From the IMG/VR virus record IMGVR_UViG_2851955134_000009: a DNA stretch of 64,000 nucleotides; one strand, written 5' to 3'. Below, in pieces: positions 40,469 to 55,187 of this stretch. How positions within the stretch are numbered: position 1 is the stretch's first letter; every line of letters begins with the position of its first letter. A program made the position numbers and the translations under genes. Below the pieces are notes generated by a model. It was not told the DNA's origin. It did no database searches and saw nothing but the letters and a program-made list of their open reading frames with translations. Origin of the DNA: a virus. Its lineage: Duplodnaviria; Heunggongvirae; Uroviricota; Caudoviricetes.

Positions 40469-41945
40469 GCAGCTGCCCCCAGATATTTGCCACAAAGAGA
40501 ATACGGGCCAGCCGCTCCTGCAGATCGTCCGTGTTCATCTGAGGGTAGAGCTCCGCCAGTTCGCCCAGCAGCTCAGTCGGGTTAACCCCGTTTTCGACCC
40601 GTCTGAACAGAGGTGCCAGGACGGGTTCCAGCGTGCCATTTAACACACCTCCGTTCATCAGAATGTCCAGCGCGTCGTCAAGCTGCTGCTGAGCCTGAAT
40701 ATCGGCATCAATCGCCTCGGCAAATGACAGCGGCAGCATGTTCTTCTCGCATTCTGACGGTGGTGTCTCGTCAATATCGCCGTCCTGCAGCTGGTACTCA
40801 CGCTTGAAGTATTGCGGGGTCAGACGCAGACCCGCCCGGGTGAGTTTTTCATCGCGGGTGGCACGGGTGTCATCAATGGCCTCCTGTTCCCACATGGCCC
40901 AGACCGGACACGGCACATCGCCGAAGTTCAGGGTGACCACCGTTCTTATGACCTGATTCACTGCCGCCTGAATGATGTCCGCATCCGCATCGCGGATATC
41001 AGCCGTCACCTCCAGCCCGGCCTGTGCAGAGGCCTTGTTACTGTTCGCTTCCGTGGTCTGATTCTGACCGAGTAATGCAATGGAGATCTCACTGCGTGAC
41101 AGTGTGATCAGCTCGCGGAATACCTCGCTGCTGTCCGCCTTGCCATCCGCTGCTTTGAGTTCGATGCTGCTGTCATCAGGGATGGCGGCCACCGCGTCCT
41201 CCACCATCTGCTCCATGGAGTCCAGCAGTTTTTCAATCTCTGCATCATTTGCACCCCTCGGGTGCTTACCGATGACCCAGGGGGAGCCAAACTTTTCGGC
41301 AAAGCGGAGCCAGAATTTCATCCCGCCTTTCTTGAAGGCGACCGGCCAGAAGCACATGGACAGGTCCGGGAAACCGTAAGGATTGTCATACGAGGCATCC
41401 TGTGCCGGCACCACGAATTTTGACGGTGACAGCAGCTCACCCTCCACACCCGCATCACGAGCCCGGAAGCGCAGGCAGTTGTCCGTATCAAACTGAAACC
41501 ACTCAGGCGGTTTGCCGACAATATCCGTCACCGCCCACGCCCTGACCGAACGGCCCCACATGATTTCACAGGGCTGATACCCGTAGAGCACGGCATCGCT
41601 CATCTCACCGATGATGCGGGACAGATCCAGATCGTCGAGCATGTCGCGGATGAAACGGAAGACCCGGGCAGAAGCGTGACCGCGCTCCAGTCCACGTTCC
41701 AGCGATTTGACCGCTGCTTTACGTCTGCGGATACAGCCCCCGACCAGCGGGTCGGTGCGCAGTTCGCGGTAGATACGGATATCCCGTCCCTGAGCCTTGA
41801 GAATGGGATCAGGGTTGGGCAGGTACATTCCCAGAGCGTAAAAGTCGATGGCGCGGCTGCGGGAGGCAATCTGCGCGGTCAGTGACTTTTTGGGTTCGGC
41901 AAACGCCACGAACTCATCGGGTGAAACCCAGATACCTTTTGCCAT
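40449..41945 (-). CDS. Portal protein (Mu gp29-like)
   Basis: 498 aa, ATGA overlap with terminase large subunit. Confidence 0.8.
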   Translation of the reverse strand: MAKGIWVSPDEFVAFAEPKKSLTAQIASRSRAIDFYALGMYLPNPDPILKAQGRDIRIYRELRTDPLVGGCIRRRKAAVKSLERGLERGHASARVFRFIRDMLDDLDLSRIIGEMSDAVLYGYQPCEIMWGRSVRAWAVTDIVGKPPEWFQFDTDNCLRFRARDAGVEGELLSPSKFVVPAQDASYDNPYGFPDLSMCFWPVAFKKGGMKFWLRFAEKFGSPWVIGKHPRGANDAEIEKLLDSMEQMVEDAVAAIPDDSSIELKAADGKADSSEVFRELITLSRSEISIALLGQNQTTEANSNKASAQAGLEVTADIRDADADIIQAAVNQVIRTVVTLNFGDVPCPVWAMWEQEAIDDTRATRDEKLTRAGLRLTPQYFKREYQLQDGDIDETPPSECEKNMLPLSFAEAIDADIQAQQQLDDALDILMNGGVLNGTLEPVLAPLFRRVENGVNPTELLGELAELYPQMNTDDLQERLARILFVANIWGQLHERDNG

Positions 41946-43468
41946 CAGAATCCCTCCAGCATACGGGCCGCCTGACGACGACGTCGTGAGCTTGCCTTCA
42001 CCGGCCCTTTGTTAATTTCACGGCTGGCGAAATACGCCAGCGCCAGTGCGATGGCTGAATCCCCGTGGCGTTTACCACCATCAGCCTTTGCTTTTGAGCG
42101 TTGTTCCGGCACGCGGGGGACACCGTTCACCACCTGAACGGCCCGCAGGTCATCCAGTGTGTCTTCATCTTTTGGTAAGTCCAGCAGGTTACCGTCTTCC
42201 AGTGCAGCTTTGACCGGAGGCATATGCTCCCGGTACCAGCCTTCGGTTGGCATCACCTGCTGAACCCGGCTGGAGCCGTAGCGCTGCATGGCGTATTCAG
42301 CCAGATAGGCACCATTACCACGGGCATCAAATGCTGCACCCAGCAGACCGGGCAGGCCATCCATCAGATACCAGGTGATTTGCTCCTGCTGTCTGAACGG
42401 CACGTTACGCAGCTCCAGTACGAATGGCACGCGTCGTACCAGGTTCTTCTCCTGCAGCAGGGGATAGTCCACCGACAAATCACCGCTGCGACCAAAGTCG
42501 CGCCCCAGGAAAGAGCGGGCATCAGTGGGGAGTGCCTCCAGCAAGGGTTTCAGATGCTCATCAAGCCAGTCCTGTGTCTCGTGGAAGCGAACCTCATCAG
42601 ACAGCAGTTCATAACCTTCCTTGCAGGTCAGACGCAATACTGGCGTATCAGCGGACATTCGGGACTCTATCAGGGCACGGGACAGCCAGGCACCGCCACC
42701 GTTGGCCGGAATACAGTCAAGCTCTTCGGATGCGCCGGCACCGTAGAATTTGTACACCGACGCCATCCAGGCCAGCTCGGATGCCTCCGACCATTCCTTC
42801 CCGGTGCGCAGACAAACGCGCTGGAACAGCCCCTCAGATACGGCTTCCCGGAAAGTGATGCGATGTACGCTGCCTCCCTGACGTCCGGCACGGATATCTC
42901 CGATAAGCGTACTGAATGGATTGTCGTCACCGTCATGGGTGGAGATAACGCGTACCTTGCCCCCCCAGATAAGCATCGCCAGCGCCGCTTTCAGCAGTTC
43001 GTCCAGTTGCTCATGGAACGCCGCTTCGTCGATAACAATAATACCCTGACGGCCACGCAGGTTAGACGGGCGGCTGGAGAGCGCGACAATGCGAAAGCCG
43101 GAGTCAGGAAATTTGATGGTGTAAGTCCTGATGTGTTTGTCGTCGTCGTCCTCTTCCCAGAATCCTTCTTCAATTTCACTGGCCGCATAGTTGAATGCCC
43201 GTGCCCACATCGCACACGCCTGAATGTATTCGACGGTCATGTCCTGGTTATAAGCGATGTAATACACATTCATCCCGCCTGCTGGCGCAGAAGAGGCGGC
43301 GGTCAGTACGTTATCGGATGCCTCAGCCCATGTAATACCGGTACGACGGCTCTTTTCTATCACCTTAAGCGGAGAGGCATCTGCCACCCAGCGCTGCTGG
43401 TAGGGCAACAGAACGGGAGGGGCATCATAACCGGAAGTGTCTGGTATTACCGGCGTGAACTGGCTCAT
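41945..43468 (-). CDS. Terminase large subunit
   Basis: 507 aa, position upstream of portal. Confidence 0.8.
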   Translation of the reverse strand: MSQFTPVIPDTSGYDAPPVLLPYQQRWVADASPLKVIEKSRRTGITWAEASDNVLTAASSAPAGGMNVYYIAYNQDMTVEYIQACAMWARAFNYAASEIEEGFWEEDDDDKHIRTYTIKFPDSGFRIVALSSRPSNLRGRQGIIVIDEAAFHEQLDELLKAALAMLIWGGKVRVISTHDGDDNPFSTLIGDIRAGRQGGSVHRITFREAVSEGLFQRVCLRTGKEWSEASELAWMASVYKFYGAGASEELDCIPANGGGAWLSRALIESRMSADTPVLRLTCKEGYELLSDEVRFHETQDWLDEHLKPLLEALPTDARSFLGRDFGRSGDLSVDYPLLQEKNLVRRVPFVLELRNVPFRQQEQITWYLMDGLPGLLGAAFDARGNGAYLAEYAMQRYGSSRVQQVMPTEGWYREHMPPVKAALEDGNLLDLPKDEDTLDDLRAVQVVNGVPRVPEQRSKAKADGGKRHGDSAIALALAYFASREINKGPVKASSRRRRQAARMLEGF

Positions 43469-44013
43469 GTGGCAATCCCCAGAATCTCGCGACGAAGTGC
43501 CTGTACTGCGTCGCTTGACAATCCGCCCTTACGGGCAATTTTCTCGGCCGCATTCGCTGCAAGTTCTGCTTTTTCCTTGACCTCACTCTGAAAACGCTTG
43601 AGATTGACAGAGGCGCGGGTCAGGGTCGCAATATTGCGGGAAGCGGTGGCCAGCAATTTCGCCCGATCAGTCGGATCATTCTCGTCACTGACTTGTTGCA
43701 GACGCATCAGGATGTCGATCATCTCCGTCTGGATCAACGTCATCAGTCCCGCAGAACGGTCATCCGCATCATCCCCCGCTTCACGAGCCATCAGCCTGGC
43801 TGCTTCAGTTGCCGCACGAACACGGGCCAGTTGCTGCTCCATTTTGTAGCCGAACCGCTGCAGGGAGGAGCGGGTTATCACATATCCCCTCTCTTTTAAC
43901 AAACTTTCAAGTTCAGCATAGCCGGTGAAATTATTCTCCGTCAGCGCCCGCTCCAGCCAGCGGCGGACATCCGTCGGCAGAGAATCAATGCTGCTGCGAC
44001 GTCCCATAATCAC
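43465..44013 (-). CDS. Terminase small subunit-like protein (Mu gp27 position)
   Basis: 182 aa helical protein directly upstream of terminase large subunit. Confidence 0.55.
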   Translation of the reverse strand: MIMGRRSSIDSLPTDVRRWLERALTENNFTGYAELESLLKERGYVITRSSLQRFGYKMEQQLARVRAATEAARLMAREAGDDADDRSAGLMTLIQTEMIDILMRLQQVSDENDPTDRAKLLATASRNIATLTRASVNLKRFQSEVKEKAELAANAAEKIARKGGLSSDAVQALRREILGIAT

Positions 44014-44321
44014 TCACTCCAGTATTTTTCCGGTCGGGCAATACCCGGGCCGCATTCCACGGTGTATTCCACAATATCCACACCAAGGCGACTCAGATCG
44101 GCAAACCAGTCACCGGACGGTCTCTTCTCCAGCTCCACCATTTTGCGATCTGCCAGATAATCAAGCTCCCGGCGCAGCTCCAGTTGCGTGGTGTCCGGGT
44201 AGATGGCGCGGGACACGTCCAGCAGCAGCGTCTCGCTGGCGGTGTAAGGGCGGGTTTTGTTCAGGGCAACCAGCAGACTCCAGCGCAGGGATTCACGGCG
44301 TACCCGGGTAATATCGACCAT
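44010..44321 (-). CDS. Hypothetical protein
   Basis: 103-aa ORF coupled to neighbours. Confidence 0.45.
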   Translation of the reverse strand: MVDITRVRRESLRWSLLVALNKTRPYTASETLLLDVSRAIYPDTTQLELRRELDYLADRKMVELEKRPSGDWFADLSRLGVDIVEYTVECGPGIARPEKYWSE

Positions 44322-44647
44322 TATTGACCTCCGGTATTGCGGTACTGCTGTACCACTTCCAGTTTGTTGTAAAGCGCGTCCAGTTTGGCCTCGATGACTG
44401 TCTGGCCACGGATATAATCCTCGCGACGGACATAATTCAGCGGTAAATCCGCTTTAAATCGCATAAATTCTTTTTCCAGCTCGCCCCAGTTGGATGCAGA
44501 CTGTTGCAGGGCCTGTTCAAGAGAGGCGAATCGTGCCGCCTGGCGTTCTTCTGTTTTACTGAACAACCATTTGGCGAGCCCTCCCACAAACCCCATGAAG
44601 GTGAGCAAAAAACTCACCACCGTCCAGAATTCAACCTGCAGTGTCAT
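44321..44647 (-). CDS. Membrane protein, lysis-region
   Basis: 108 aa with N-terminal TM helix. Confidence 0.5.
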   Translation of the reverse strand: MTLQVEFWTVVSFLLTFMGFVGGLAKWLFSKTEERQAARFASLEQALQQSASNWGELEKEFMRFKADLPLNYVRREDYIRGQTVIEAKLDALYNKLEVVQQYRNTGGQ

Positions 44648-45294
44648 TTCTGTAATCCTTCCCGTTCATCCAGTAGCGCGTTTATCTGGTTCCGCCAGCG
44701 ACGACATTGCCCTGCGTTGTCGATGATGTTGGCGAGAACGTCACGCTGGGAGACGCCTGAGTCGCGTAGCCAGGCGTCAGCGGTTTCAGGTTGCCCGGTC
44801 GCTGTGCCAGAGCGGGTGCCAGTGGCGGCAACTGAGTCTGAATGACCGCTGTCGACGGATGCGTTGTCATATCCGAGTGCGGCGTTGTACTGGCGCACGA
44901 AACCGCGAGTAAACACGCACTCAATGGGATGGCTCTTACCTTTTTCATCAATCCAGCGCTGTGTGACATCGTTAATTTGCCCCTGTAGTTGTTTATTCCG
45001 GCTCTCCAGTTGAGCAATCTGCTCAAGGTAACTGGCTTCAGCCTGCTGCCCGGCGGCCACCTGCTCCTGATACCGTTTTGCCCAGGCCCGCAACGCAGCG
45101 TTCTCAAGCGTTGCCTGCTCCGTTTTGTATTTGTCGAATGCTGACTGCAACTGACTGAGCGCGGTATTACCGTCACGCTTTGCAGAGTCATGACCACTGC
45201 TGTATCCCATGGCATACAGGCCGACCAGAAAGGCATTGATAAGAATGGCCAGCAGAATGCCGCGCCACGGCAGCTTTTTAACCAGATGCCACAC
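44644..45294 (-). CDS. Spanin-like lysis protein (TM plus coiled coil)
   Basis: Start set to GTG at 45294 with GGGAGG RBS; TM GILLAILINAFLVGLYAMGY then coiled coil. Confidence 0.55.
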   Translation of the reverse strand: MWHLVKKLPWRGILLAILINAFLVGLYAMGYSSGHDSAKRDGNTALSQLQSAFDKYKTEQATLENAALRAWAKRYQEQVAAGQQAEASYLEQIAQLESRNKQLQGQINDVTQRWIDEKGKSHPIECVFTRGFVRQYNAALGYDNASVDSGHSDSVAATGTRSGTATGQPETADAWLRDSGVSQRDVLANIIDNAGQCRRWRNQINALLDEREGLQK

Positions 45295-46018
45295 AACTGC
45301 TGCCTCCCCATGTGAGATATCGCGGTGCCAGCTCGCGCAGGATGCGTTGTGGATAATGGCGGTTCTCCCGCCAGCTGGCAGCATTGCGTCCGGCATTCAC
45401 CGTGGCGACATGTCCGAACCAGCGCTGACTGTCCAGCCCCAGATATGCGGCGAGCCGCTGGTCACGGCGCACCCAGCCCGGGCCACCGTTATAGCCCGAC
45501 AGTGTCATGGCCATACGCTCGCAGTCGCTGGCGGCACTGATGCGCTGCCACAGCCAGCGGTCATAACTGACCAGCGCCCGGATAGCCCATGCCGGATTAA
45601 ACGGCTCTCGACTGCTCAGCGCCGGCATCAACTGGCTTATCCAGTCGGCAGTGGCAGGCATAAACTGCGCCAGTCCCTGAGCCCCCACCGGCGAGATCGC
45701 ATCAGGTCGCCAGCCGCTTTCCTGATGCAGTTGCGCAGCGAAATCAGCCACCGGCGCAGACAGTCCCCATTCAAGCCGGGCATTACGGATCACATCATCG
45801 CGATACTGCAGGGCAGCCCGCGGGGGCTGTGCTGCGGATGCCTGACTGAAAAAGCCACCACACCAGAGCAACATTGCGACAAAGAATACCCATGCCATAT
45901 GAACCAGAAAGGTCCCGGCGCGGACTGACAGGCGTTCGGTTCTGATGAAGACCCGAAAGGCTTCGAAAGCCAGTTTCAGGGACATGCATACAATCCAGGT
46001 GATCTGCGGCCAGTTCAT
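45278..46018 (-). CDS. Lytic transglycosylase endolysin with N-terminal membrane anchor
   Basis: SLT-type motif (LHQESGWRP...AQGLAQFMPAT) and hydrophobic N-terminus; follows holin-like gene. Confidence 0.75.
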   Translation of the reverse strand: MNWPQITWIVCMSLKLAFEAFRVFIRTERLSVRAGTFLVHMAWVFFVAMLLWCGGFFSQASAAQPPRAALQYRDDVIRNARLEWGLSAPVADFAAQLHQESGWRPDAISPVGAQGLAQFMPATADWISQLMPALSSREPFNPAWAIRALVSYDRWLWQRISAASDCERMAMTLSGYNGGPGWVRRDQRLAAYLGLDSQRWFGHVATVNAGRNAASWRENRHYPQRILRELAPRYLTWGGSSCVASG

Positions 46019-46020
46019 GA

Positions 46021-46371
46021 TTAAAGCCCCATCGCAACAGCCAGACAGACAGCTGCAACAATCAGTGCACGACGAAGCAGGGCGGCAGCAAACACCAGAT
46101 GAAGCCCGGTCTGTACGGGCCAGCGCCCCTCAGCCATGAGGCGCTCGTCATGCTTCAGGTACTGCCCCGGGCGGGCCTTCGGGAAGAGCGAGCGGTCCAG
46201 CCAGTAGCCGAGAACGGAGGCGAGGGAGATGAGAGAGAGCTTGTACACCACCACCGGCAGCTGCTGGGGCGAGACCAGCGCGATGATGAGGAGCAGCAGT
46301 ACGGCGGCAACAAGCCAGCCACGCAGGCGGGTTTTTTGTACGTCTGCGATAAGGGAGGTGAGTTTTTTCAT
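46021..46371 (-). CDS. Holin-like membrane protein
   Basis: 116 aa with 2-3 TM helices, first gene of leftward late/lysis operon. Confidence 0.55.
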   Translation of the reverse strand: MKKLTSLIADVQKTRLRGWLVAAVLLLLIIALVSPQQLPVVVYKLSLISLASVLGYWLDRSLFPKARPGQYLKHDERLMAEGRWPVQTGLHLVFAAALLRRALIVAAVCLAVAMGL

Positions 46372-46503
46372 AAAGATGTCTCCTTGTGTAGTGGAGACAG
46401 CATCACAAATACGGGGCGCGAAGGATTTTAAAGCGCGTTAAGAGAGCCGGGGATACGGGATGCGCAGAATAAACGATGAATTATTCACAGAGGAGAATAC
46501 GAT

Positions 46504-47247
46504 ATGACGCACACACTGAATCCGGTCATCACTGTCACTGTGTCCGGTCCTGTGGGCAGCGGTAAAAGTTACGTACTGGCGCGGATAGAAGAGATGGTGA
46601 AACAGGAACTCGGAAACAGCGTCATTGTCGATGCTGCTGACGTGGAGAATGAGCGCCGTATGAGTGGCGATGATCTGACGACCTGGCAGAAGCCACGGGC
46701 TGGCACAGTGATCAGGCTGGAGGAATACACGGGACAGGGCCTGTTGTCATACGGCGAGGAGCGTATCTGTCGGACGAATGAGCTGCTGGATGTTATATGC
46801 CCCGCGGGCCGGCAACCCTGGATACTGCCCGATGCACTGCATGCCACCATTGCGGCACTGATGACAGTTTACGATCAGGAACTGCTCATGAAGGAGTTAC
46901 GTAAACTCACCGGTCAGCCAACAGAATGTTTTTCGGCCCCGAAGTACGGGAAGCAGGAACACATCCCGGTGAACACAATCCCCGTTAACCAGCCTCCCCG
47001 GTTCTTCGACGAATACATTCTGACACCGGAAAATAAAGCTGAGCATGAAGAGATCAAAGAGGCGTTGTTCCGGGAAATCAGGAAGATTGCTGAAATGCAA
47101 CTGGGGGGCGGGCTGGACAGAGTGATGGCGAGAGGAGAATGGGAGTCGCTGTTTGAAAGAGTTTCCCCGGAATTACTGCCCCTCGCACTGGCTATCGGGA
47201 TTATGCAGACAGCAGATAAACCTCACTTACGTTCATCAAACACGTAG
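46504..47247 (+). CDS. P-loop NTPase of unknown function (accessory)
   Basis: 247 aa; Walker A GPVGSGKS at residues 15-22; lies between lysis genes and repressor. Confidence 0.55.
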   Translation: MTHTLNPVITVTVSGPVGSGKSYVLARIEEMVKQELGNSVIVDAADVENERRMSGDDLTTWQKPRAGTVIRLEEYTGQGLLSYGEERICRTNELLDVICPAGRQPWILPDALHATIAALMTVYDQELLMKELRKLTGQPTECFSAPKYGKQEHIPVNTIPVNQPPRFFDEYILTPENKAEHEEIKEALFREIRKIAEMQLGGGLDRVMARGEWESLFERVSPELLPLALAIGIMQTADKPHLRSSNT

Positions 47248-47300
47248 CGCAGAATATTTTGCCGGTGAGTACATAAAAATCATCATTTAAGGAGTGCATC

Positions 47301-47516
47301 ATGAATCCCCGATTAACGTTAACAGAACATCAGCGCCGTGCTGAAGCAGTGAACAATGTTCTGGAAGATATTATCCGGTTACATCGCGGAGAACTGAGTG
47401 TCTGTCGTGCCGCTTTTCATTTTCAGGGAATACAAAAGCAGTTTGATACTTCTGTTTTTGCAGAAGGTATTACTTATGCCCTGGACCGGATAAGGTCAGA
47501 AAATCGCCCCGGATAA
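47301..47516 (+). CDS. Hypothetical small protein
   Basis: 71 aa; AAGGAG RBS. Confidence 0.5.
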   Translation: MNPRLTLTEHQRRAEAVNNVLEDIIRLHRGELSVCRAAFHFQGIQKQFDTSVFAEGITYALDRIRSENRPG

Positions 47517-47707
47517 TCCCTAAACCACATTAACAGAAATCCCACTATCCCTGCCGCATCATGAAAGAACGACCAGCCCGGTGCTTCGGACCCACCGGGC
47601 TGGCCATCGTCCCACAGAAGTGGCTGTGAGCCGACCGAGGTTCAGTCAGTCTCGCGAGACCAGACTAGCCTGCCATATTTTTAATAATTGTAAAAGGCTT
47701 ACAGATT

Positions 47708-48472
47708 ATGAAAATGCAGACATTACCCATCGTTCCATGGATTGGTGGCAAACGCCGCCTTGCAAAACACATTCTGCCGCTGTTTCCGGCGCATGAATGT
47801 TATGTGGAGCCGTTTTGTGGGGCAGCAGCGCTCTATTTTCTTAAGACACCCGGCAAGATCGAAGTCATCAATGATATCAACGGTGAACTGGTGAATCTGT
47901 ACCGGGTGGTAAAGCATCACCTGGAAGAATTTGTCCGCCAGTTCAAATGGGCGCTGGTCAGCCGTCAGATCTACAAATGGCTGCAGATCACCCCGGAAGA
48001 AACACTGACGGATATCCAGCGTGCGGCACGGTTCTACTACCTTCAGAAGCAGGCGTTTGGCGGCAAGGTGGCAGAGCACAGCTTCGGTACCTCCACCACA
48101 TCCCCGCCACGCTTCAACCTGCTGCGTATTGAAGAAGAACTGTCAGCGGCACACCTGCGGCTTTCCAGAACAGTCATAGAACACATGGACTGGCAACAGT
48201 GCATTGAGCGTTATGATCGTCCGCACACGCTGTTCTACTGCGACCCACCGTACCTGGGTACGGAAGGCTATGGTGTGGATTTTCCTGAAGGGAACTACTC
48301 GCGGCTGGCAGAGCTGGCCCGGTGCATCAGAGGAAAAATGATAATTTCGGTGAACGACATCCCGCAGATGCGCGAGGTGTTCACTGGACTGAACATACAG
48401 ACAGTGAATATCAACTACAGTCTGGCGGGTAAATCCACGCCGCGCCGTGAACTGCTAATCTGCAACTTCTGA
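47708..48472 (+). CDS. DNA N6-adenine methyltransferase (Dam-like, orphan)
   Basis: 254 aa; PWIGGKRRL N-terminal motif and DPPY catalytic motif (LFYCDPPYLGT); no restriction partner. Confidence 0.85.
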   Translation: MKMQTLPIVPWIGGKRRLAKHILPLFPAHECYVEPFCGAAALYFLKTPGKIEVINDINGELVNLYRVVKHHLEEFVRQFKWALVSRQIYKWLQITPEETLTDIQRAARFYYLQKQAFGGKVAEHSFGTSTTSPPRFNLLRIEEELSAAHLRLSRTVIEHMDWQQCIERYDRPHTLFYCDPPYLGTEGYGVDFPEGNYSRLAELARCIRGKMIISVNDIPQMREVFTGLNIQTVNINYSLAGKSTPRRELLICNF

Positions 48473-48588
48473 AACAAAACCGGAAAGCACAATGCTTTCC
48501 GGTAAACCAAACAACTTCCACTATGTCACTGGCGATGTTTTCTGAAATCATCCAGATCAACCACCTGTCTTTTGTGTCCGGGTCAGTA

Positions 48589-48936
48589 TCAGCCTGCGAT
48601 TTTTCCTGGTTTTGGCTGAGTATAGAAGCGCCCAACCTCAAGAAATGAGCGTCGTTGCTCCGGAGTCATTTCATCAAATGCGTCCATTAATTTCTGTTTG
48701 TCTGGTGACATTTTTGGGATAGCGTTGGTAGTTGCATCCCCTCTCTGTCCCGTAACAACGTAAAGCACGTCAAGCCCCAAAGTAGCCCAAATTGCCAAAG
48801 CATCTGCTCCGGGAGCGGATTCATCCTTTTCCCACCGCAATTGGCTTTTATAGGATGCCCCCACCAATTCAGCAAACTCAGACTGACTAAATCCTAGGCG
48901 GTTTCGTTCTTCTTTTAATCGTGAACCAAGTGACAT
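48589..48936 (-). CDS. Repressor-like HTH protein (XRE/Cro-C1 type)
   Basis: 115 aa; HTH (RLGFSQSEFAELVGASYKSQLRWE); divergent from Ner-like early operon. Confidence 0.7.
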   Translation of the reverse strand: MSLGSRLKEERNRLGFSQSEFAELVGASYKSQLRWEKDESAPGADALAIWATLGLDVLYVVTGQRGDATTNAIPKMSPDKQKLMDAFDEMTPEQRRSFLEVGRFYTQPKPGKIAG

Positions 48937-49029
48937 TTTTGTCCCAATATCTATTTACATATCCCATTATTGGGATAATAATCTAACAAATATAAAGCAA
49001 ACATCATTGCACTAAACAAGGAGACAACA
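48937..49029. promoter_or_regulatory. Divergent promoter/operator region between repressor and early operon
   Basis: AT-rich; inverted repeat CCCAATA (48943..48949) / TATTGGG (48968..48974); GGAG RBS before early gene. Confidence 0.45.
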
Positions 49030-49218
49030 ATGACTGCAGACCAGGTCAAAGCTCATTTCCGTCGCAATGGGATCACTTTTACCCAGTGGGCAAAACAGAA
49101 CAACTACACCAGAGCGGAGGTTTACCGCGTACTGAATGGCCAGGTAAAAGCGAACTACGGCAAAGCCCATGAAATCGCTGTCAAGCTGGGATTAAAAACC
49201 ATCACTGACGCCGCTTAA
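49030..49218 (+). CDS. Ner/Cro-like small DNA-binding protein
   Basis: 62 aa, first early gene; HTH-like NYTRAEVYRVLNGQ. Confidence 0.55.
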   Translation: MTADQVKAHFRRNGITFTQWAKQNNYTRAEVYRVLNGQVKANYGKAHEIAVKLGLKTITDAA

Positions 49219-49271
49219 AAAGATACAGCATACGAAAAAGATTATCACATATTGAAAAAAGAGGTGTGCAG

Positions 49272-49580
49272 ATGAGTAAGACGAATGTTTCAAGCTCCGG
49301 CAGTCGCATCCTCCGGGTACTAAAAGCGCTGCGTGGTCATGCTCTGAACGGTATTTCCAACGGTGAACTGGCAGCAGCACTGCACGAGTCACCGGCGAAC
49401 ATCAACCGGGCACTCAACACCCTCATTGAAGAAGGGCTGGCTCTGAAACTGGAGAACGGACGTTTCGCACCGGGCATTCAGTTGCTGCAGATCGCCATGG
49501 CCCACAGTAACGAGATGGCACGTGCACAGGATCGTATTAACGAAATTAACCAACGTGTTATTTCAGGAAGTCGTTTGTAA
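49272..49580 (+). CDS. Hypothetical DNA-binding protein
   Basis: ATG at 49272 with GAGG RBS; 102 aa. Confidence 0.5.
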   Translation: MSKTNVSSSGSRILRVLKALRGHALNGISNGELAAALHESPANINRALNTLIEEGLALKLENGRFAPGIQLLQIAMAHSNEMARAQDRINEINQRVISGSRL

Positions 49581-49590
49581 GGAGTAATCA

Positions 49591-50508
49591 ATGGGACGCA
49601 CCAAATCACCGGTTAGCACTGAACTGAACGTCGAGGTACCGCTGTCGGATGATCTCAATGTCAGTCTGAACGCCATGACACAGCATCGCATGGAAATCAT
49701 GCAACAGTTCGGCGATGGTCTGCCCTATGAGCGCGATCGTGTTGTCCATGAGGCACGCTTTTATATGGCACAGAGCGCTGAGGCCATGCTGGAGGCAGGT
49801 AAACGGCTAATAATCCTTAAGGAAAATGAACCACACGGGGAGTTTATAAAGATTCTTGAAAGTGAGTTGGGGCTGGCATACCGGACATCTGTGAGAATGA
49901 TGCAGGCATCGACAAAATACTTATCCCCGGCGCTGAAACCAAATGTGCCAACGTTGGCACATTTGGGAAAAGCCAAACTTTTCGAATTAATGACAGAAGA
50001 CGACGAAGAGCTTGCCGAACTGGCCGACGGCGGTACGGTTGCCGGCCTGACGCTTGACGATGTTGATCGCATGTCAGTACGTGAACTTCGTCAGGCCCTG
50101 CGCGAAGCGCGCGAAACCAATGCAGCACAACAGCGTGTTCTAGCCGACAAAAATGAAAAAATCGACTCACTCTCCACCAGGCTGGAGAAAAAATCCCGTA
50201 TTCAACCGCCTGAGCCTGATGAAGAGGTGAAGAAGCTGCGGGCGGAAGTGACCGCATTAGCGGTTGAGGCGGAATCTGCCATCGCCGTCCGGCTCTCCGG
50301 TGCCTTTGAAACCCTGTGTGAATACTGCAGTAAAAACATGATTGATACCCCCAGAGATTTCATGGCCGGTCTGGTCTGCCAGATTGAACGCAGTGTTCAT
50401 GCATTGCGTGAGACGTTCGACCTTGATGCCGCACCATCGGGTAACGATGTCCCCGCATGGCTGACCGAACCGGAGCCTGAAATCAACCGACCGGAGGGCA
50501 TGCGTTAA
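49591..50508 (+). CDS. Hypothetical early protein
   Basis: 305 aa, acidic, coiled-coil segment. Confidence 0.55.
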   Translation: MGRTKSPVSTELNVEVPLSDDLNVSLNAMTQHRMEIMQQFGDGLPYERDRVVHEARFYMAQSAEAMLEAGKRLIILKENEPHGEFIKILESELGLAYRTSVRMMQASTKYLSPALKPNVPTLAHLGKAKLFELMTEDDEELAELADGGTVAGLTLDDVDRMSVRELRQALREARETNAAQQRVLADKNEKIDSLSTRLEKKSRIQPPEPDEEVKKLRAEVTALAVEAESAIAVRLSGAFETLCEYCSKNMIDTPRDFMAGLVCQIERSVHALRETFDLDAAPSGNDVPAWLTEPEPEINRPEGMR

Positions 50509-50825
50509 TGAACACGAATAATACACAAAATATCCTGATGGACAGCCCGGAAGCACTGGGGCACGCACTGTGTAATCTGCTGCCGGAGATGGTGCAGGGT
50601 TTCCGCGTGGTGACACCTTCCGGTGAAATCTGCGTACCCGCACAGGAGGCGCATCCGTTTGTACTGACGATGGAAGTGATGCTGATGCAGCAGATAAGAC
50701 GTCTGCAGCATCAGTCAGCATTGCGCCCGGCAGTTGCGCCGCAACCGGTAAATAACGTGGTGAAAACCTGCGATGGCGAAACCCTGCGCGACCGTGCCAG
50801 AAAAATTGCCGCCAGAATCGGATAA
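50508..50825 (+). CDS. Hypothetical protein
   Basis: 105 aa; TAATG overlap. Confidence 0.45.
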   Translation: MNTNNTQNILMDSPEALGHALCNLLPEMVQGFRVVTPSGEICVPAQEAHPFVLTMEVMLMQQIRRLQHQSALRPAVAPQPVNNVVKTCDGETLRDRARKIAARIG

Positions 50826-50840
50826 CAGGGAAGACAAGCT

Positions 50841-52610
50841 ATGACCCCGGCACTGACTGAAAAACTTGTTGAAACAGCCCGCGCGGCACGTAATGCGGGG
50901 CATGGTAAACGCGGTGCAATATACGACGCTGCCTGTGCTGAACTTGGCATGTCCCGCGCCACTCTGCTGCGCAGGCTGAAGGAGGTCTCTGTGACTGATA
51001 AACGCAAAAAACGCGCCGATGCCGGACGCAGCACCCTGACCCGCGACGAAGCCGCGCTGATATCTGCCACACTACGTGAGGCCACCCGCAAGAACGGTAA
51101 GCGTCTCTATTCCATCGCGGATGCAGTGGAAACCCTGCGGGCTAACGGCTTTATCTCCGCAGGCAGAACAGATGAAACCACCGGTGAGTTTTTCCCGTTG
51201 TCCGAAGATGCCATCAGTCGTGCCCTGCGTAACTATGGCCTGCACCCGGAACAACTGGATGCCCCTGCACCGCATACCGAAGTGGCCAGTCTGCACCCCA
51301 ATCATGTCTGGCAGATTGACGCCTCACTCTGCACGCTTTACTACCTGAGCAATGGACATAAAGGGCTGCAGGTGATGGACAGCGCGAAATTCTACAAAAA
51401 CAAGCCCGCTAACCTTGCCCGTATCGCCAGTGACCGCGTGTGGAGTTACGAGATTACCGACCATGCCAGCGGCTGGATTTACGTTGAGTATGTGACGGGT
51501 GCGGAATCCGGTGAGAACCTGTGTTCTGTGCTTATCAACGCCATGCAGGAGCGTGGCGGCGCAGACGTGCTGCACGGCGTGCCAAAAATACTCTATCTCG
51601 ACCCCGGCTCGGCAAACACCGCGGGTATGACGAAAAACATGTGCCGCTCACTGGGCATCGACCTGATAGCGCACAAGCCGCATAACGCCCGCGCCACCGG
51701 ACAGGTGGAAAAGGCGCGTGACATTATCGAACGCAAGCTGGAGCCGGGTCTGAAGTTCCGGCCGGTTCACAGTCTGGAAGAACTCAACGCGCTGGCCGCG
51801 AAATGGCGCAGCCACTTTAACGCCACGGCTGTTCACAGCCGCCACGGTAAAACCCGCACGGATATCTGGCTGAAGATTACTGCTGAGCAGCTGAAAAAAG
51901 CGCCTTCCGTTGAGGTATGTCGTGAACTGGCTGTGGCGGCACCAGAACTCCGCAAAGTCACGCCAAAACTTCGTGTCTCGTTCCGGGGCACTGAATTTGA
52001 CGTATCAACGGTACCGGGCGTACTGGTCGGTGAAAAACTGATGATTACCCGTAACCCGTGGCGCAGCGATGTGGCACAGGTGGTTCTGACCGGTGAGGAC
52101 GGCCACGAGACGTTCTTCCTGGTCGAAGAGGTCAGAAAGAACGAGTTTGGCTTTGCTGAAGGCGCGGCGGTATTTGGCGAAAGTTACAAAGCCCTGCCGG
52201 AAACCCCGGCGCAGATGGCGGCAAAAGAAACCGAAGCGCTGGTCACCGGTACAGACAACGCCGCAGATGCAGCTGCCGCACGCAAGGCGAAGGCGCTGCC
52301 GTTCGGCGGGCGGCTTGACCCGTATAAACATATTGATGACGCCACACTTCCGGCCTGTATACCGAAGCGTGGTCAGGCCTCTGACGTACGCGGACCGCGC
52401 ACTGAACAGCGTCCCATGACTCATGTGGAGGCCGCGAAAGCCCTGCGCGGGAAGTTTAGCGCAAACGGCCTGACCTGGACGCCGGAACATTACCGCCAGT
52501 TAACAGCACAGTACCCGGACGGCGTACCGGAAGCCGCACTGGATGAAGTCATGGCCACGCTGACCACGCCGGCCCGCAGCAGCGTTATCAGCATTGTTAA
52601 CGGCAACTGA
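50841..52610 (+). CDS. DDE transposase (retroviral-integrase-type core), transposable-phage A-like
   Basis: 589 aa; N-terminal HTH; core with HVWQIDAS, YLDPGSANT and downstream E; followed by AAA+ partner. Confidence 0.8.
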   Translation: MTPALTEKLVETARAARNAGHGKRGAIYDAACAELGMSRATLLRRLKEVSVTDKRKKRADAGRSTLTRDEAALISATLREATRKNGKRLYSIADAVETLRANGFISAGRTDETTGEFFPLSEDAISRALRNYGLHPEQLDAPAPHTEVASLHPNHVWQIDASLCTLYYLSNGHKGLQVMDSAKFYKNKPANLARIASDRVWSYEITDHASGWIYVEYVTGAESGENLCSVLINAMQERGGADVLHGVPKILYLDPGSANTAGMTKNMCRSLGIDLIAHKPHNARATGQVEKARDIIERKLEPGLKFRPVHSLEELNALAAKWRSHFNATAVHSRHGKTRTDIWLKITAEQLKKAPSVEVCRELAVAAPELRKVTPKLRVSFRGTEFDVSTVPGVLVGEKLMITRNPWRSDVAQVVLTGEDGHETFFLVEEVRKNEFGFAEGAAVFGESYKALPETPAQMAAKETEALVTGTDNAADAAAARKAKALPFGGRLDPYKHIDDATLPACIPKRGQASDVRGPRTEQRPMTHVEAAKALRGKFSANGLTWTPEHYRQLTAQYPDGVPEAALDEVMATLTTPARSSVISIVNGN

Positions 52611-52620
52611 GGAGGGAAAC

Positions 52621-53787
52621 ATGCTGGTACTGAAGCAGCAACTGAAAGAGGCCCGTATTCCACAGGCGGTGGCGGCGAGAGCTGTCGATGTTTCTGAGGC
52701 CACGCTGGCCCAGATTGTGAATCATAACGCGTGGCCCCGCACCAGCCCCGGAGAAGTGCGCCGGCGTCTTGCGTCCTGGCTGGAAAGTCAGGGGATTGAT
52801 ACAACGAAGAGTTTTGATGCTGTACAGGGCGCGGCCACGCCCCGTACAGCGGGTACCACAGATAAAACGAGCCTCAGTGAGGAAGAGAATATGTTACTCA
52901 AAAAACAGGTGTTATTTCCAGCAACCAAAAAAGCGTTTGGTCTTTTCCGTGACCCGTTCGCCGATGAAGCCATGCAGGGTTCTGATGATGTGTTCACCAC
53001 CCCGGACATTCGCTACGTGCGTGAGGCGCTGTACCAGACAGCCCGTCATGGTGGGTTTATGGCCGTCATCGGTGAGTCCGGTGCGGGTAAATCCACGCTG
53101 CGCCGCGACCTGACTGAACGTATTAACCGCGAGAATGCGCCGGTAATTGTTATCGAGCCATACATCATCGCTATGGAAGACAACGATGTGAAAGGGAAAA
53201 CCCTGAAGGCAGCAGCTATTGCCGAAGCCATTATCAGTACCATCGCACCACTGGAAAGCATCAGACGCAGTCAGGACGCCCGCTTTCGCCAGTTGCATCG
53301 CGTCCTGAAAGACAGCAGCCAGGCGGGGTTCAGCCACGTTCTGGTGATTGAGGAGGCCCACAGTCTGCCCATTCCGACACTGAAACACCTCAAACGCTTT
53401 TTTGAGCTGGAGTCCGGTTTCAAAAAACTGCTGTCCATCGTGCTGATTGGCCAGCCGGAACTGGCGACAAAACTGTCTGAACGCAATATGGAAGTCCGTG
53501 AAGTCGTTCAGCGCTGTGAGGTGGTCGAACTTCTGCCTCTGGACAATAACCTTGAAGAATTTCTGACGTTCAAACTGCAACGGGCCGGTAAACAACTGAC
53601 GGACATTATGGACGCCAGCGCAGTGGATGCCATACGTGCCCGCCTGAGCAATCCGGGAAGTCATCGTAAAAATATGGTCAGCCTGCTGTATCCGCTGGCC
53701 GTCAGTAACCTGGTAATAGCCGCCATGAATCTGGCCGCTGAAATCGGGGTTCCACAGGTCAACGCTGACGTTGTCAAAGGAGTTTAA
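52621..53787 (+). CDS. AAA+ ATPase transposition helper (Mu B-like)
   Basis: 388 aa; N-terminal HTH; Walker A GESGAGKST; Walker B VLVIEEAH. Confidence 0.8.
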   Translation: MLVLKQQLKEARIPQAVAARAVDVSEATLAQIVNHNAWPRTSPGEVRRRLASWLESQGIDTTKSFDAVQGAATPRTAGTTDKTSLSEEENMLLKKQVLFPATKKAFGLFRDPFADEAMQGSDDVFTTPDIRYVREALYQTARHGGFMAVIGESGAGKSTLRRDLTERINRENAPVIVIEPYIIAMEDNDVKGKTLKAAAIAEAIISTIAPLESIRRSQDARFRQLHRVLKDSSQAGFSHVLVIEEAHSLPIPTLKHLKRFFELESGFKKLLSIVLIGQPELATKLSERNMEVREVVQRCEVVELLPLDNNLEEFLTFKLQRAGKQLTDIMDASAVDAIRARLSNPGSHRKNMVSLLYPLAVSNLVIAAMNLAAEIGVPQVNADVVKGV

Positions 53788-53789
53788 TA

Positions 53790-54059
53790 ATGAAATCCAC
53801 CACAGGTATCAACCAGCAAATCAGCAAAGTGCAGTCAGCCATTATGGCGCTTAAGGCGACGAACACGGATGTACAAAGCATCACCATCAGGGGTAACAAA
53901 CCTGTCATCCGCGTTTCCCGGAGTGCGCATTGCATGCGCATGCTTGAGCAGGGAAAGGCCTGTTATCTGTATACCGGACATGACCACAGGGGATATTTCC
54001 GTCAGGGCGTTTTCGAACTGCACGGCTGTCGCGTCGTGTGGCCGGAATCTTTGTGGTAA
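53790..54059 (+). CDS. Hypothetical protein
   Basis: 89-aa ORF directly after the ATPase gene. Confidence 0.45.
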   Translation: MKSTTGINQQISKVQSAIMALKATNTDVQSITIRGNKPVIRVSRSAHCMRMLEQGKACYLYTGHDHRGYFRQGVFELHGCRVVWPESLW

Positions 54060-54086
54060 TCAGCACAACCGGAGAAATCATAAAAT

Positions 54087-54617
54087 ATGGCAAAAAGTAC
54101 AAAAGGGGCAAAACGTATCAAGGCCGCAGCGGCACTCTGGGTACCAGGGACACGCGAAGAGGTCATTGAGGGAATCAGACTACTCGGTGACGCACAACGT
54201 GAACTGGTCAGGGCTGAAACAGAAATGAATGACGCCATTGGCGATATCACCGCACGTTATGCCCCGCTCACCGAGAGCCTGAAAAAACGCATGGCCGAAC
54301 TGCAGTCCGGTATCCAGACATGGTGTGAGGCGCACCGTGATGAACTGACCGGCAACGGGAAGGTGAAGTTCGCTAACCTTACCACCGGCGAGGTGCAGTG
54401 GCGAAACCGTCCGCCATCAGTCAGTATCCGTGGGGCGGATAATGTTATTGAATTACTGAGACGTCTGGGGCTTGAGCGCTTTATTCGTGTAAAAGAGGAA
54501 ATAAATAAAGACGCTATCCTGAATGAAAAAGAGGCCGTGAAAAATATTCCCGGTATTTCCATTAAAAGCGACATTGAGGATTTTTCAATAATTCCTTTTG
54601 AGCAGGATGTGCAGTAA
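54087..54617 (+). CDS. gam: Gam-like host-nuclease inhibitor
   Basis: 176 aa; strong similarity to Mu Gam as recalled (RIKAAAA...TEMNDAI...WCEANRDELT...SIRG...FIR.K.EINK.AIL...SDIEDFSIIPFEQ). Confidence 0.85.
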   Translation: MAKSTKGAKRIKAAAALWVPGTREEVIEGIRLLGDAQRELVRAETEMNDAIGDITARYAPLTESLKKRMAELQSGIQTWCEAHRDELTGNGKVKFANLTTGEVQWRNRPPSVSIRGADNVIELLRRLGLERFIRVKEEINKDAILNEKEAVKNIPGISIKSDIEDFSIIPFEQDVQ

Positions 54618-54714
54618 ACACACCACGTTAATTATTTAATAAAAACATTTTCTTTTTTATTCCGGCGTCAGCGCCGCGGGCTTCTGCACGCCGGAAACAG
54701 AGGAGAATTAAATC

Positions 54715-54909
54715 ATGATATTTAAATGTATTCAGTGCGAGAGGGATATAACAGCCCTGCGTTTTCACAGCGCCATCGCCGTGATGTCCGGTAAATACCA
54801 CATCCCTGCGGTACGCGTCACCCTGGTCTGCCCGTACTGCAGCCAGCATTTTTCGGCGGACGTGCCCGTCATGGAATTCTCCCGCCCTGACAGGGAGGAC
54901 GCGCAATGA
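54715..54909 (+). CDS. Small zinc-ribbon protein
   Basis: 64 aa with CxxC (CIQC) and CxxC (CPYC); GAGGAG RBS. Confidence 0.5.
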   Translation: MIFKCIQCERDITALRFHSAIAVMSGKYHIPAVRVTLVCPYCSQHFSADVPVMEFSRPDREDAQ

Positions 54910-55178
54910 TTACCCCACAGGAAGCACGACAGCGCACCCGAACCCTTGTTGAACACTATGTCAACGAGTGTGAATGCCGCAACCTCACCGATGTGAAGCA
55001 CGTCCTGACGGCACTAATCAGTATGGCCGCTCAGGCCATTGTGGCAACCAACGGAAAGGCGGCTGCCCTGCAGGTACTGGTGAACACACTCACCCACACG
55101 GCAGAGCATGAGGTGCCGTACCGGATGGAAACCACTGCAGAAGGCGGCCTGCACATCACCGTCAGCCGGAAGCACTGA
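54906..55178 (+). CDS. Hypothetical protein
   Basis: 90 aa, ATGA overlap. Confidence 0.45.
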   Translation: MITPQEARQRTRTLVEHYVNECECRNLTDVKHVLTALISMAAQAIVATNGKAAALQVLVNTLTHTAEHEVPYRMETTAEGGLHITVSRKH

Positions 55179-55187
55179 GGGCGCGGC

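Follow-up and report, generated by a model that had tools for sequence, protein, structure and literature searches.

Two orphan adenine methyltransferases in nested P2-like and BcepMu-like prophages, and a conserved structured leader upstream of one of them

The 64,000-nucleotide stretch of viral DNA analysed here (the window) carries two evolutionarily separate orphan methyltransferases of the D12 N6-adenine class, one in a P2/186-like prophage and the other in a BcepMu-like (Mu-like) transposable prophage inserted within it. The reading we favour, and consider fairly probable, is that both modify phage DNA during lytic growth, without reprogramming the lysogen, and that the Mu-like enzyme supplies a late, translationally gated anti-restriction function with a target other than GATC. 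Both enzymes are of types already known, and they change little in themselves: one is a phage copy of Dam, present in 23% of complete E. coli genomes, and the other is the already catalogued M.EcoMIV, whose gene is found in 555 of 5,426 such genomes (10%), the ST131 lineage included. The new lead is the leader of the Mu-like gene, a candidate new RNA motif with strong covariation. The features discussed are listed in Table 1.

Table 1. Features of the window, in order of position.
Feature	Coordinates	Strand	Remarks
TraR/DksA C4 zinc-finger gene	5352..5579	+	PF01258, 43.5 bits; directly 5' of the P2-like dam; order shared with 813R9
P2/186-like prophage Dam	5576..6433	+	D12-class N6-adenine methyltransferase, 285 aa, intact
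P2 gpA-type replication (nicking) protein	6430..8844	+	annotated in relatives as replication protein GpA/replication endonuclease; 3' of dam
Target-site duplication ATTATT, left copy	21146..21151	.	6 bp
BcepMu-like transposable prophage	21152..58746	.	37,595 bp; in the 186/P2-like prophage, between lysC and gene R
Holin	46021..46371	-	PF13272, 140.9 bits; opens the leftward lysis/late operon; divergent from the methylase unit
Two-gene cassette	46504..47516	+	247-aa protein (46504..47247) and 71-aa protein (47301..47516)
Structured 5' leader of the Mu-like methylase gene	47558..47716	+	roughly 150 nt, three-part, conserved
Leader hairpin H1	47573..47603	+	11-bp stem of variable sequence
Predicted long-range helix, 5' strand CUGUGAGCC	47624..47632	+	pairs with the ribosome-binding region
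Leader hairpin H3	47638..47671	+	long, imperfect; palindromic tip GTCTCGCGAGAC; covariation
Predicted long-range helix, 3' strand GGCUUACAG	47696..47704	+	overlaps Shine-Dalgarno AAGG (47694..47697), 5' of ATG 47708
BcepMu-like orphan D12-class N6-adenine methyltransferase	47708..48472	+	254 aa, intact; M.EcoMIV / phage B3 ORF48 / phi1026b gp26 subfamily
GC-rich hairpin	48479..48503	.	between the convergent methylase and repressor genes, shared; terminator-like on the minus strand
Putative prophage repressor	48589..48936	-	XRE-type HTH, 115 aa; convergent with the methylase gene
Mor-family transcription activator	57240..57638	+	PF08765, 148 bits; candidate late-gene activator
Target-site duplication ATTATT, right copy	58747..58752	.	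6 bp

The nested prophages and their methylase genes

The inner prophage is 92-99.7% identical to phage PhiKM, EC958 Phi2 and the VTB96937v prophage, relatives that are classified as Bcepmuvirus. Its termini, TGATGCGCC... on the left and ...GTCTGATCA on the right, were read from the sequence with the junctions aligned to the empty insertion site, which is visible in phage Cartapus; these ends (TGATG... and ...GATCA) fit TG...CA termini. With the flanking ATTATT duplication, the empty site bears out the nesting that had been proposed from the letters. A DDE transposase (rve domain, 50841..52610), TG...CA termini, a short target-site duplication and a non-specific site (the insertion sites of the EC958 and VTB96937v relatives differ from one another) together mark a transposable phage of the Mu/BcepMu type. 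The nested junction occurs in none of the 5,426 complete E. coli genomes.

Both ORFs that the sequence-only reading had picked out as DPPY-type N6-adenine methylases are of that class: PF02086 matches them at 254 bits (P2-like) and 102 bits (Mu-like), against a cutoff of 22, FxGxG, D54 and DPPY are invariant in the two enzymes and five aligned phage homologues, and K14 is kept in both enzymes. In each of the two, FxGxG (motif I) lies N-terminal to DPPY (motif IV); the third glycine of motif I is replaced by A or C in the enzymes and homologues here and by L in T4 Dam. The fold of both is settled, at the level of sequence, by matches to the solved structures of DpnM, EcoDam and T4 Dam. The further description of both as "Dam-like" fits the P2-like enzyme fully, and the Mu-like one at the level of family only.

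The P2-like enzyme matches E. coli Dam structures at E 3e-73, scores 318 bits on TIGR00571 (cutoff 114.85), and in alignment keeps the equivalents of EcoDam K9, Y119, L122, R124, N126 and P134; E. coli genomes contain 100% identical copies under the annotation "DNA adenine methylase". It appears to be a true Dam relative, most likely GATC-specific, and, with its GATC contacts retained, most likely repeats the work of host Dam instead of contributing a new motif. The gene had been assigned to the early operon, and the order cox-cII-fil-B-orf80-Zn finger-dam-A in phage 813R9 (99.5% identical) agrees; the operon runs opposite cI, and the dam ATG overlaps the stop codon of the preceding TraR-type gene. 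The product of the downstream ORF at 6430..8844 is a replication initiator and no restriction enzyme. The early operon is presumably repressed in the lysogen. The P2-like Dam, whose gene is transcribed as part of the early replication set (B, dam, A), would keep fast-replicating phage DNA fully GATC-methylated, a state that may guard it against nicking by MutH and cutting by GATC-specific restriction enzymes; no new motif would result in a Dam-positive host.

The Mu-like enzyme is identical at 253 of 254 positions to M.EcoMIV (WP_000783854), the product of an EC958 gene within the Phi2 coordinates; its identity to ORF48 of Pseudomonas phage B3 is 64%. Identities to the subfamily members B3 ORF48, phi1026b gp26 and the phiHAP-1 methyltransferase run from 63 to 65%, and the PADLOC model PDLC03253 matches at 374 bits. 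The subfamily occurs in pandemic ST131 and in many Enterobacterales, Pseudomonas and Burkholderia phages. That its gene in the window stands next to the repressor was seen correctly: the convergent repressor gene is 116 bp away, and its product has HTH_3/HTH_31 matches just under the gathering score, matches to PHROG repressor families, and DicA/RstR-like matches below cutoff.

The leader of the Mu-like methylase gene

The leader preceding the Mu-like gene folds with a z-score of -4.24 and has no Rfam match at E<=1. With a covariance model it was detected ahead of the homologous gene at 44 of 80 species loci, and upstream in phages B3 and phi1026b. Double changes occur at 28 of its 33 pairs, and 91.5% of cells are paired (shuffles, 72.4%; slid controls, 29-42%); these counts were taken on a model-fitted alignment and are biased towards the structure. 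In the H1 stem all 11 pairs show compensatory changes (44 sequences). The 3' end of the H1 loop is a conserved ...AAC in most relatives, from which the loop here, CTTCGGACC, departs. RNAalifold also returned the helix over the ribosome-binding site when given 22 diverse leaders aligned independently with MAFFT (pairs UA13/CG7 and GC10/AU7). Formed between 47624-47632 and 47696-47704, it is predicted to cover the Shine-Dalgarno sequence, as in ribosome-binding-site occlusion of the com-mom type; the CUGUG of its 5' strand can instead pair with CACAG at 47613..47617.

Two candidates for transcriptional signals near the gene were set aside. One was that the palindrome GTCTCGCGAGAC (47649..47660) might be a Mor/C activator site present in repeated copies; the window has a single copy, which is better taken as the tip of H3. 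A sigma-70 promoter directly 5' of the gene was considered as well, and its TAATAAT -10-like element is not conserved in other genera. No promoter or Mor/C-type activator site could be defined around the locus.

In relatives the gene lies in late or Com-linked settings. A com-methyltransferase operon is present in phage B3 (ORF47 Com, ORF48 methyltransferase) and in at least 11 genome loci, the Com gene in some relatives standing between leader and methylase gene, and in phi1026b, phiHAP-1 and POA1180 the homologues end late or lysis modules. In the window no Com-like ORF adjoins the Mu-like gene, and none with a PF10122 match lies immediately upstream; the Mu-like part has a single CxxC...CxxC ORF, at 54715..54909, and PF10122 does not match it either. 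The helix over the ribosome-binding site, taken with the late-operon and Com context in relatives, points to modification of phage DNA in the lytic phase. The mRNA of the Mu-like enzyme would begin with the three-part leader, its long-range helix lying over the ribosome-binding site, and modification would be late and translationally gated: potentially toxic, it would be off in the lysogen and would later shield progeny DNA from restriction. A leader over the ribosome-binding site, sometimes accompanied by a Com gene, offers a testable mechanism for the silence of this methylase in lysogens.

A further possibility, which we put forward tentatively and think rather less likely to be right than wrong, is that the leader is an undescribed, widely distributed cis-regulatory RNA gating a methylase harmful to the host, and that the B3 ORF48/M.EcoMIV subfamily is of broad or relaxed specificity. 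The leader would then work through H1, H3 and competition between the small CACAG/CUGUG hairpin and the helix lying over the ribosome-binding site. Gating of a methylase that is harmful when unrestrained would suggest a broad or relaxed adenine specificity like that of Hia5. One in ten E. coli genomes would in that case harbour a silent but switchable m6A methylase that is nearly non-specific.

Target specificity of the Mu-like enzyme

Structures of EcoDam and T4 Dam with DNA are reported to show base contacts by K9, L122, R124 and P134, with Y119 intercalating. The arginine that reads the G of GATC is R124 in EcoDam and R116 in T4 Dam. At the EcoDam contacts the Mu-like enzyme has K9->P, L122->K, R124->A, N126->H and P134->S, and an aromatic residue at position 119 is the sole Dam contact retained. 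Across its subfamily the positions K9/Y119/L122/R124/N126/P134 are P, F, K, variable, variable and S/T, with A, E, N, S or G in place of R124. Observed/expected GATC is 0.88 in the P2-like DNA, as against 0.38-0.58 in four BcepMu-like phages. The loss of contact residues, together with the GATC depletion of the phage lineage, argues that the target is probably not canonical GATC and is possibly relaxed: the catalytic core is intact, and the DNA-reading hairpin and N-terminal loop lack the residues with which Dam reads GATC. The loss of single contacts is no proof of a new specificity, as T4 Dam reads GATC without a residue aligned to EcoDam K9. GATC depletion is an indirect indication, and has also been reported for E. 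coli mobile elements generally (PMC4659465).

It is conceivable, though in our judgement unlikely, that both enzymes are plain GATC Dams, the Mu-like one reading GATC by way of a diverged hairpin and being redundant with host Dam. Both score above the TIGR00571 "Dam family" threshold, the nearest solved structures for both are of GATC enzymes (DpnM, EcoDam, T4 Dam), and M.EcoMIV has been described as a predicted Dam homologue (Forde et al.; PMC4659465); an additional GATC enzyme would not show in a Dam-positive methylome, and T4 Dam gives a precedent for recognition without a K9 equivalent. The Mu-like enzyme, however, passes TIGR00571 marginally, by just 2.5 bits (117.4 vs 114.85), and reaches 68 of the 441 bits of the Dam equivalog NF008152. 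The G-reading arginine is replaced throughout its subfamily, which also has a conserved K in place of L122 and S or T in place of P134, and a phage methylating its own GATC sites would not be expected to be depleted of them. We therefore keep to a non-GATC target as the probable one, and advise against annotating or modelling the Mu-like enzyme as a GATC Dam.

In 2015 REBASE listed no activity or specificity for the M.EcoMIV subfamily (PMC4659465). Several leads to a recognition sequence were followed and dropped: M.EcoGIX is a plasmid-borne single-strand methyltransferase, unrelated; YhdJ accounts for the ATGCAT motif seen in a Salmonella strain carrying a BcepMu-like prophage; and M.BceJIV of Burkholderia (GTWWAC) is a beta-class enzyme. 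Literature leads through VHML and phiE125 yielded no recognition site for the subfamily.

Activity in the lysogen, neighbouring genes and known systems

The sequence-only reading had gone further, supposing that two different methylases in one nested locus would layer methylation on the host chromosome. This is not supported for either enzyme. The P2-like Dam keeps the EcoDam contacts and sits in a lytic early operon opposite cI, and its likely target, GATC, is already methylated by host Dam. On the Mu-like side, RT-PCR of the EC958 lysogen found transcription of M.EcoMIV, whose gene is 99.6% identical, to be significantly below that of dam (low, but not zero), and no motif in the EC958 SMRT data could be assigned to it (PMC4659465); moreover, the conserved helix covers the ribosome-binding site, and the genes of relatives lie in late operons or behind Com. 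A Salmonella lysogen with a reported BcepMu-like prophage (the methylase gene is presumed) shows only the five expected motifs, which is weak evidence in the same direction. By contrast, transcripts of the phi1026b homologue reach 21,563 RPKM in a lysogen of B. pseudomallei (PMC2920897), so that activity in the lysogenic phase may be possible for some members. The Mu-like gene of the window is also a separate unit, convergent with the repressor and outside the early and late operons, and is carried by one in ten complete E. coli genomes, ST131 included. Even so, we regard it as improbable that methylases expressed from these prophages add an epigenetic layer that alters host expression. The other role named in that reading, anti-restriction, seems the most plausible for both enzymes.

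The methylases had also been described as having no adjacent endonuclease, and this holds: Pfam, NCBIfam and PADLOC show no nuclease or restriction domain in the genes flanking either one, and no nuclease-like neighbour of the Mu-like gene recurs in 80 related loci or five phages, the scope of the statement being limited by the two neighbours of unannotated function at 46504..47516. That this cassette supplies the partner of a cryptic restriction or defence module, with the Mu-like enzyme as its modification half, is very improbable. In its favour, the three genes lie side by side in one orientation, PADLOC's top model for the enzyme is labelled "MTase_II" rather than "orphan", and the 247-aa protein carries a Walker-A-like GPVGSGKS. 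Against it, neither cassette protein is matched by Pfam, NCBIfam or PADLOC or shows a nuclease motif, the methylase gene is set apart by its own leader, and in most relatives, which lack the cassette, that leader directly follows the holin-proximal motif. The cassette proteins match phrog_3787 and phrog_4490. The motif itself, GATTTTAAAGCGCGTTAAGAG, lies at 46424 and has a degenerate copy at 47521, the duplication on either side of the cassette being placed at 46429 and 47521; it was considered as a shared late-promoter element and rejected, being found at these two places only.

Among known systems, the P2-like enzyme is closest to E. coli Dam (M.EcoKDam), with the same fold, motif order and main GATC-contact residues. 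It differs from the chromosomal enzyme in scoring under the equivalog cutoff (287 vs 441), in N120R and R137N substitutions and a longer C-terminal tail, and in being phage-borne and co-transcribed with replication genes. Dam genes of Peduoviridae (Klebsiella phage 4LV2017, Escherichia phage 813R9) have the same early-operon position, with DNA 96-99.5% identical.

The Mu-like enzyme has its nearest counterpart in M.EcoMIV of E. coli ST131 EC958 Phi2 (PMC4659465), which is the same BcepMu-like prophage with the gene in the same slot between lysis genes and repressor. EC958 Phi2 is inserted between aroA and ycaL, whereas the prophage here is inserted in a P2-like prophage and has about 1.15 kb of additional right-end cargo. 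Phage B3 shares the leader and the methyltransferase subfamily with the window; in B3, however, a Com gene stands between the two and the operon is embedded in late tail genes, while in the window no Com adjoins the gene, which points away from the divergent late operon.

Mu-like prophages are known to replace mom by com-linked adenine methyltransferases that are silent in lysogens (PMC3299994). Hia5, Hin1523 and Nma1821 (Drozdz et al., 2012; PMC3299994) are such enzymes: non-specific, distantly related to Dam, with a divergent target-recognition region, and adding no methylation in lysogens. They form a sequence family different from that of the window enzyme, and relaxed specificity is a feature of the Hia5 type. 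The 1000 top PSI-BLAST relatives of Hia5 do not include B3 ORF48 (PMC3299994); judged through B3 ORF48 as a 64% identical stand-in, the window enzyme falls outside the Hia5 family.

Niche and apparent logic are also shared with com-mom of phage Mu: a transposable phage carries an adenine-modifying anti-restriction function, RNA structure would occlude the translation start, and a Com zinc-ribbon protein is linked to the enzyme in relatives (PMC3299994). Mom is an acyltransferase-fold enzyme making acetamido-adenine (PMC3299994), while the window enzyme is a methyltransferase, and mom lies at the right end of Mu, while the gene here is central in its prophage. The Mu-like enzyme may be a functional substitute for Mom, and its leader would extend the logic of com-mom to a true methyltransferase family.

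Two methylases in nested prophages

Two orphan Dam-like adenine methylases, layering methylation on the host chromosome, had been proposed for this locus in the sequence-only reading. Both enzymes are real: the P2-like and Mu-like ORFs are open and full length, match Pfam PF02086 (D12-class N6-adenine methyltransferases; 254 and 102 bits, respectively, gathering score 22) and PHROG phrog_56, and keep motif I (FxGxG), the EcoDam residues D54 and K14 and the catalytic DPPY, which confirms the observation. Their orphan status also stands: no restriction gene turned up in the flanks of either, which include the TraR-type zinc-finger and gpA replication initiator genes beside the P2-like dam, and clustering of the neighbors of the Mu-like gene in 80 loci found no recurrent nuclease. 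With 1,238 of 5,426 complete E. coli genomes carrying the P2-like gene and 555 the Mu-like one, both are common, and both had been catalogued before; as stated, then, the finding is an ordinary one.

The left part of the P2-like prophage carries, in order, int, an ATPase gene, cI, cox-cII-fil-B-orf80-Zn finger-dam-A, and head and lysis genes; its R, S and baseplate genes resume past the Mu-like insertion. Its early region is 99.5% identical to that of Escherichia phage vB_EcoM-813R9 and 97% to that of Klebsiella phage 4LV2017. The BcepMu-like transposable prophage has counterparts in the E. coli strains VTB96937v (a prophage, 99.7% identity) and EC958 (ST131; prophage Phi2, 92-98%) and in Escherichia phage PhiKM of the genus Bcepmuvirus (92%). 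It lies between lysC and gene R: phage Cartapus retains the empty site (GACATGATTATTGCGTGTC), while in the window the element starts with TGATGCGCC and ends with GTCTGATCA, flanked by a 6-bp target duplication. The insertion has replaced the C-terminus of LysC (Rz1), which now ends at a stop codon supplied by the element's first bases, and R (GTG at 58772) and S have lost their connection to the late operon upstream. The P2-like prophage is therefore probably defective and, we infer, probably crippled for tail completion. The P2-like/Mu-like junction is absent from all 5,426 complete E. coli genomes.

The Mu-like right terminus (58741..58746) reads TGATCA, placing a GATC site on the transposon's last bases; the left end, TGATGC, has none. 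The left end carries an invertase gene and, after it, tail-fibre segments in inverted repeat, in agreement with the published invertible region of EC958 Phi2. A right-end segment common to the VTB96937v prophage and missing from Phi2 contains a small ORF and a predicted membrane protein that matches no family. In the P2-like prophage, the integrase and cI genes are separated by a 558-aa ORF that could be accessory or defence cargo; its annotation in 813R9 is "chromosome segregation ATPase".

Features of the nested prophages and of the Mu-like methylase region
Feature	Position	Strand	Remarks
186/P2-like (Peduoviridae) prophage	1..21151 and 58747..64000		
558-aa ORF	1136..2812	-	
P2-like methylase gene	5576..6433	+	285 aa
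Target duplication	21146..21151 and 58747..58752		ATTATT
BcepMu-like prophage	21152..58746		
Invertase gene	21230..21931	-	
Invertible tail-fibre region	21230..24200		
Cassette-flanking motif	46429 and 47521		TAAAnnnCRTTAAYAG
Two-gene cassette	46504..47516	+	
247-aa protein (phrog_3787)	46504..47247	+	Walker-A-like GPVGSGKS
71-aa protein (phrog_4490)	47301..47516	+	
Leader	47558..47716	+	covariance model; also L093 5724..5872, L008 3350..3500 and 42 further loci
Hairpin H1	47573..47603	+	11-bp stem, free sequence
Long-range helix (predicted)	47624..47632 : 47696..47704	+	CUGUGAGCC : GGCUUACAG; covers AAGG Shine-Dalgarno
Leader hairpin H3	47638..47671	+	
Mu-like methylase gene	47708..48472	+	254 aa
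GC-rich hairpin	48479..48503		11 bp
CxxC...CxxC ORF	54715..54909		
Right-end segment	57596..58746		
Predicted membrane protein	57753..58385		
Small ORF	58389..58559	-	

Target specificity of the two enzymes

The P2-like enzyme matches E. coli Dam structures (E 3e-73) and scores 318 bits against the TIGR00571 Dam-family model (cutoff 114.85) and 287 against the chromosomal Dam equivalog, below its cutoff of 441; its best PADLOC model is "orphan methyltransferase". Alignment with EcoDam and T4 Dam (the latter sequence checked against PDB 1q0s) shows that it keeps K9, Y119, L122, R124, N126, P134, Y138 and K139, the residues that reportedly read GATC in the co-crystals of those two enzymes. It is an ordinary phage Dam, whose specificity is most likely for GATC. 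Although the longest frame begins at TTG 5516, it is ATG 5576 that overlaps the preceding gene's stop codon; expression would accompany the lytic early operon, opposed by cI.

The Mu-like enzyme is a much weaker Dam relative (DpnM, E 4e-17; EcoDam, E 4e-14), clearing TIGR00571 by only 2.5 bits, and its best PADLOC model (PDLC03253, 374 bits) belongs to a different cluster from that of the P2-like enzyme. It is identical at 253 of 254 positions to WP_000783854 of EC958, encoded inside a BcepMu-like prophage between aroA and ycaL whose invertible tail-fibre segment (1005540..1007607) is the one published for Phi2 (PMC4134206). Identity and location together make it M.EcoMIV of Forde et al. (2015), who reported a Phi2-borne D12 orphan whose transcription in mid-log LB was significantly below that of dam and to which no SMRT motif could be assigned; in 2015, none of its homologues above 65% identity had a known recognition site (PMC4659465). 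Our literature search found no recognition sequence for the subfamily. Among beta- and gamma-proteobacteria, at least 80 species have relatives with 62-87% identity, and phage homologues include phi1026b gp26 (65%), Pseudomonas phage B3 ORF48 (64%), the phiHAP-1 methylase (63%), and proteins of Acinetobacter phage Acba_11 (58%), Ochrobactrum phage POA1180 (40%) and Campylobacter CJIE1 (cje0220, 35%).

In the aligned Mu-like subfamily the catalytic core is invariant and the positions with which Dam reads GATC are replaced: K9 by P, Q or A, L122 by a conserved K, R124 by A, E, N, S or G, and P134 by S, T or R, with N126 variable. The subfamily hairpin has a conserved pattern of its own, FGGK...FG..TT. 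The GATC observed/expected ratio is 0.38-0.58 in all four BcepMu-like genomes examined (that of the window and the related L001, L002 and L006), where CTAG alone among 4-bp palindromes is more depleted; in the P2-like DNA it is 0.88, and GATC is not avoided. Replaced contacts and GATC depletion argue, indirectly, against the Mu-like enzyme being a canonical GATC Dam. T4 Dam likewise lacks a K9 equivalent in the alignment, and GATC depletion is general among E. coli mobile elements (PMC4659465).

The idea that two new methylations are stacked on the host chromosome finds no support: the P2-like enzyme most likely duplicates host Dam, and the Mu-like enzyme is essentially off in the lysogen, going by what has been published on a copy with 99.6% identity (PMC4659465). 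New leads come from the latter: its non-Dam recognition hairpin and a conserved leader over its ribosome-binding site.

A structured leader ahead of the Mu-like methylase gene

Between the 71-aa gene and the methylase start lie 190 nt with a much stronger fold than shuffled sequence (z = -4.24); at E<=1 nothing in Rfam matches the leader. In an alignment of eleven enterobacterial leaders compensatory changes are plain to see, and a covariance model derived from these eleven matches 44 of the 80 species loci (E<2e-4), directly upstream of the methylase or com start, including loci of Pseudomonas, Burkholderia, Iodobacter, Massilia, Halomonas and a Francisella MAG, and also phi1026b and B3. In the 44-sequence alignment, which is model-fitted and leans towards the structure, the share of paired cells is 91.5% (shuffles, 72.4%; slid controls, 29-42%), and double changes occur at 28 of 33 pairs. 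RNAalifold, run on an independently made MAFFT alignment of 22 diverse leaders, likewise returns the long-range helix, with UA13/CG7 and GC10/AU7 as pairs. The last G of the Shine-Dalgarno sequence lies 10 nt before ATG 47708. An alternative pairing of the helix's CUGUG with CACAG (47613..47617) could act as a switch. The H1 loop ends in ...AAC in most relatives, unlike that of the window (CTTCGGACC).

The two-gene cassette, with the holin control region on one side and the leader on the other, is an insertion specific to E. coli-type phages and missing in most relatives: in other genera, the leader is directly 3' of a holin-proximal motif, GATTTTAAAnnGCGTTAAnAG. It is flanked by two motif copies, the one at 47521 degenerate, and neither of its proteins has a match in Pfam, NCBIfam or PADLOC. 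Beyond the methylase gene, a hairpin separates it from the convergent repressor gene; the T-run after this hairpin is on the minus strand only, making it terminator-like for the repressor gene and not for the methylase gene.

Com, Mom and proposed late expression

The largest neighbor cluster in the 80 loci is a small zinc-ribbon protein immediately upstream of the methylase, which is Com (PF10122, 50.5 bits, cutoff 22.9). B3 (ORF47 com, ORF48 methylase) and at least 11 loci share the order leader, com, methylase, with com overlapping the methylase start. In the window no Com gene adjoins the Mu-like methylase, and the sole CxxC...CxxC ORF of the Mu-like part has no PF10122 match.

Homologues of the Mu-like enzyme sit at the ends of late/lysis operons or behind com. 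Taken with the occluded start and the near-silent EC958 copy, this context suggests late, gated expression: the conserved leader structure would occlude the translation start, and modification of progeny DNA would protect it from restriction once it enters the next host. A promoter for the gene could not be assigned, and transcription of the phi1026b homologue in a Burkholderia lysogen (PMC2920897) runs counter to this reading.

B3 has Com and an adenine methylase (its activity then untested) in place of Mom (Drozdz et al. 2012, PMC3299994). The com-linked Hia5, Hin1523 and Nma1821 of Mu-like prophages are near-non-specific adenine methylases, of a family that adds no methylation in lysogens; B3 ORF48 falls outside the 1000 closest relatives of Hia5 (PMC3299994), making the Mu-like subfamily a separate lineage in the same niche. 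Taken as a whole, the evidence makes the BcepMu-like methylase gene look like a functional stand-in for Mu mom.
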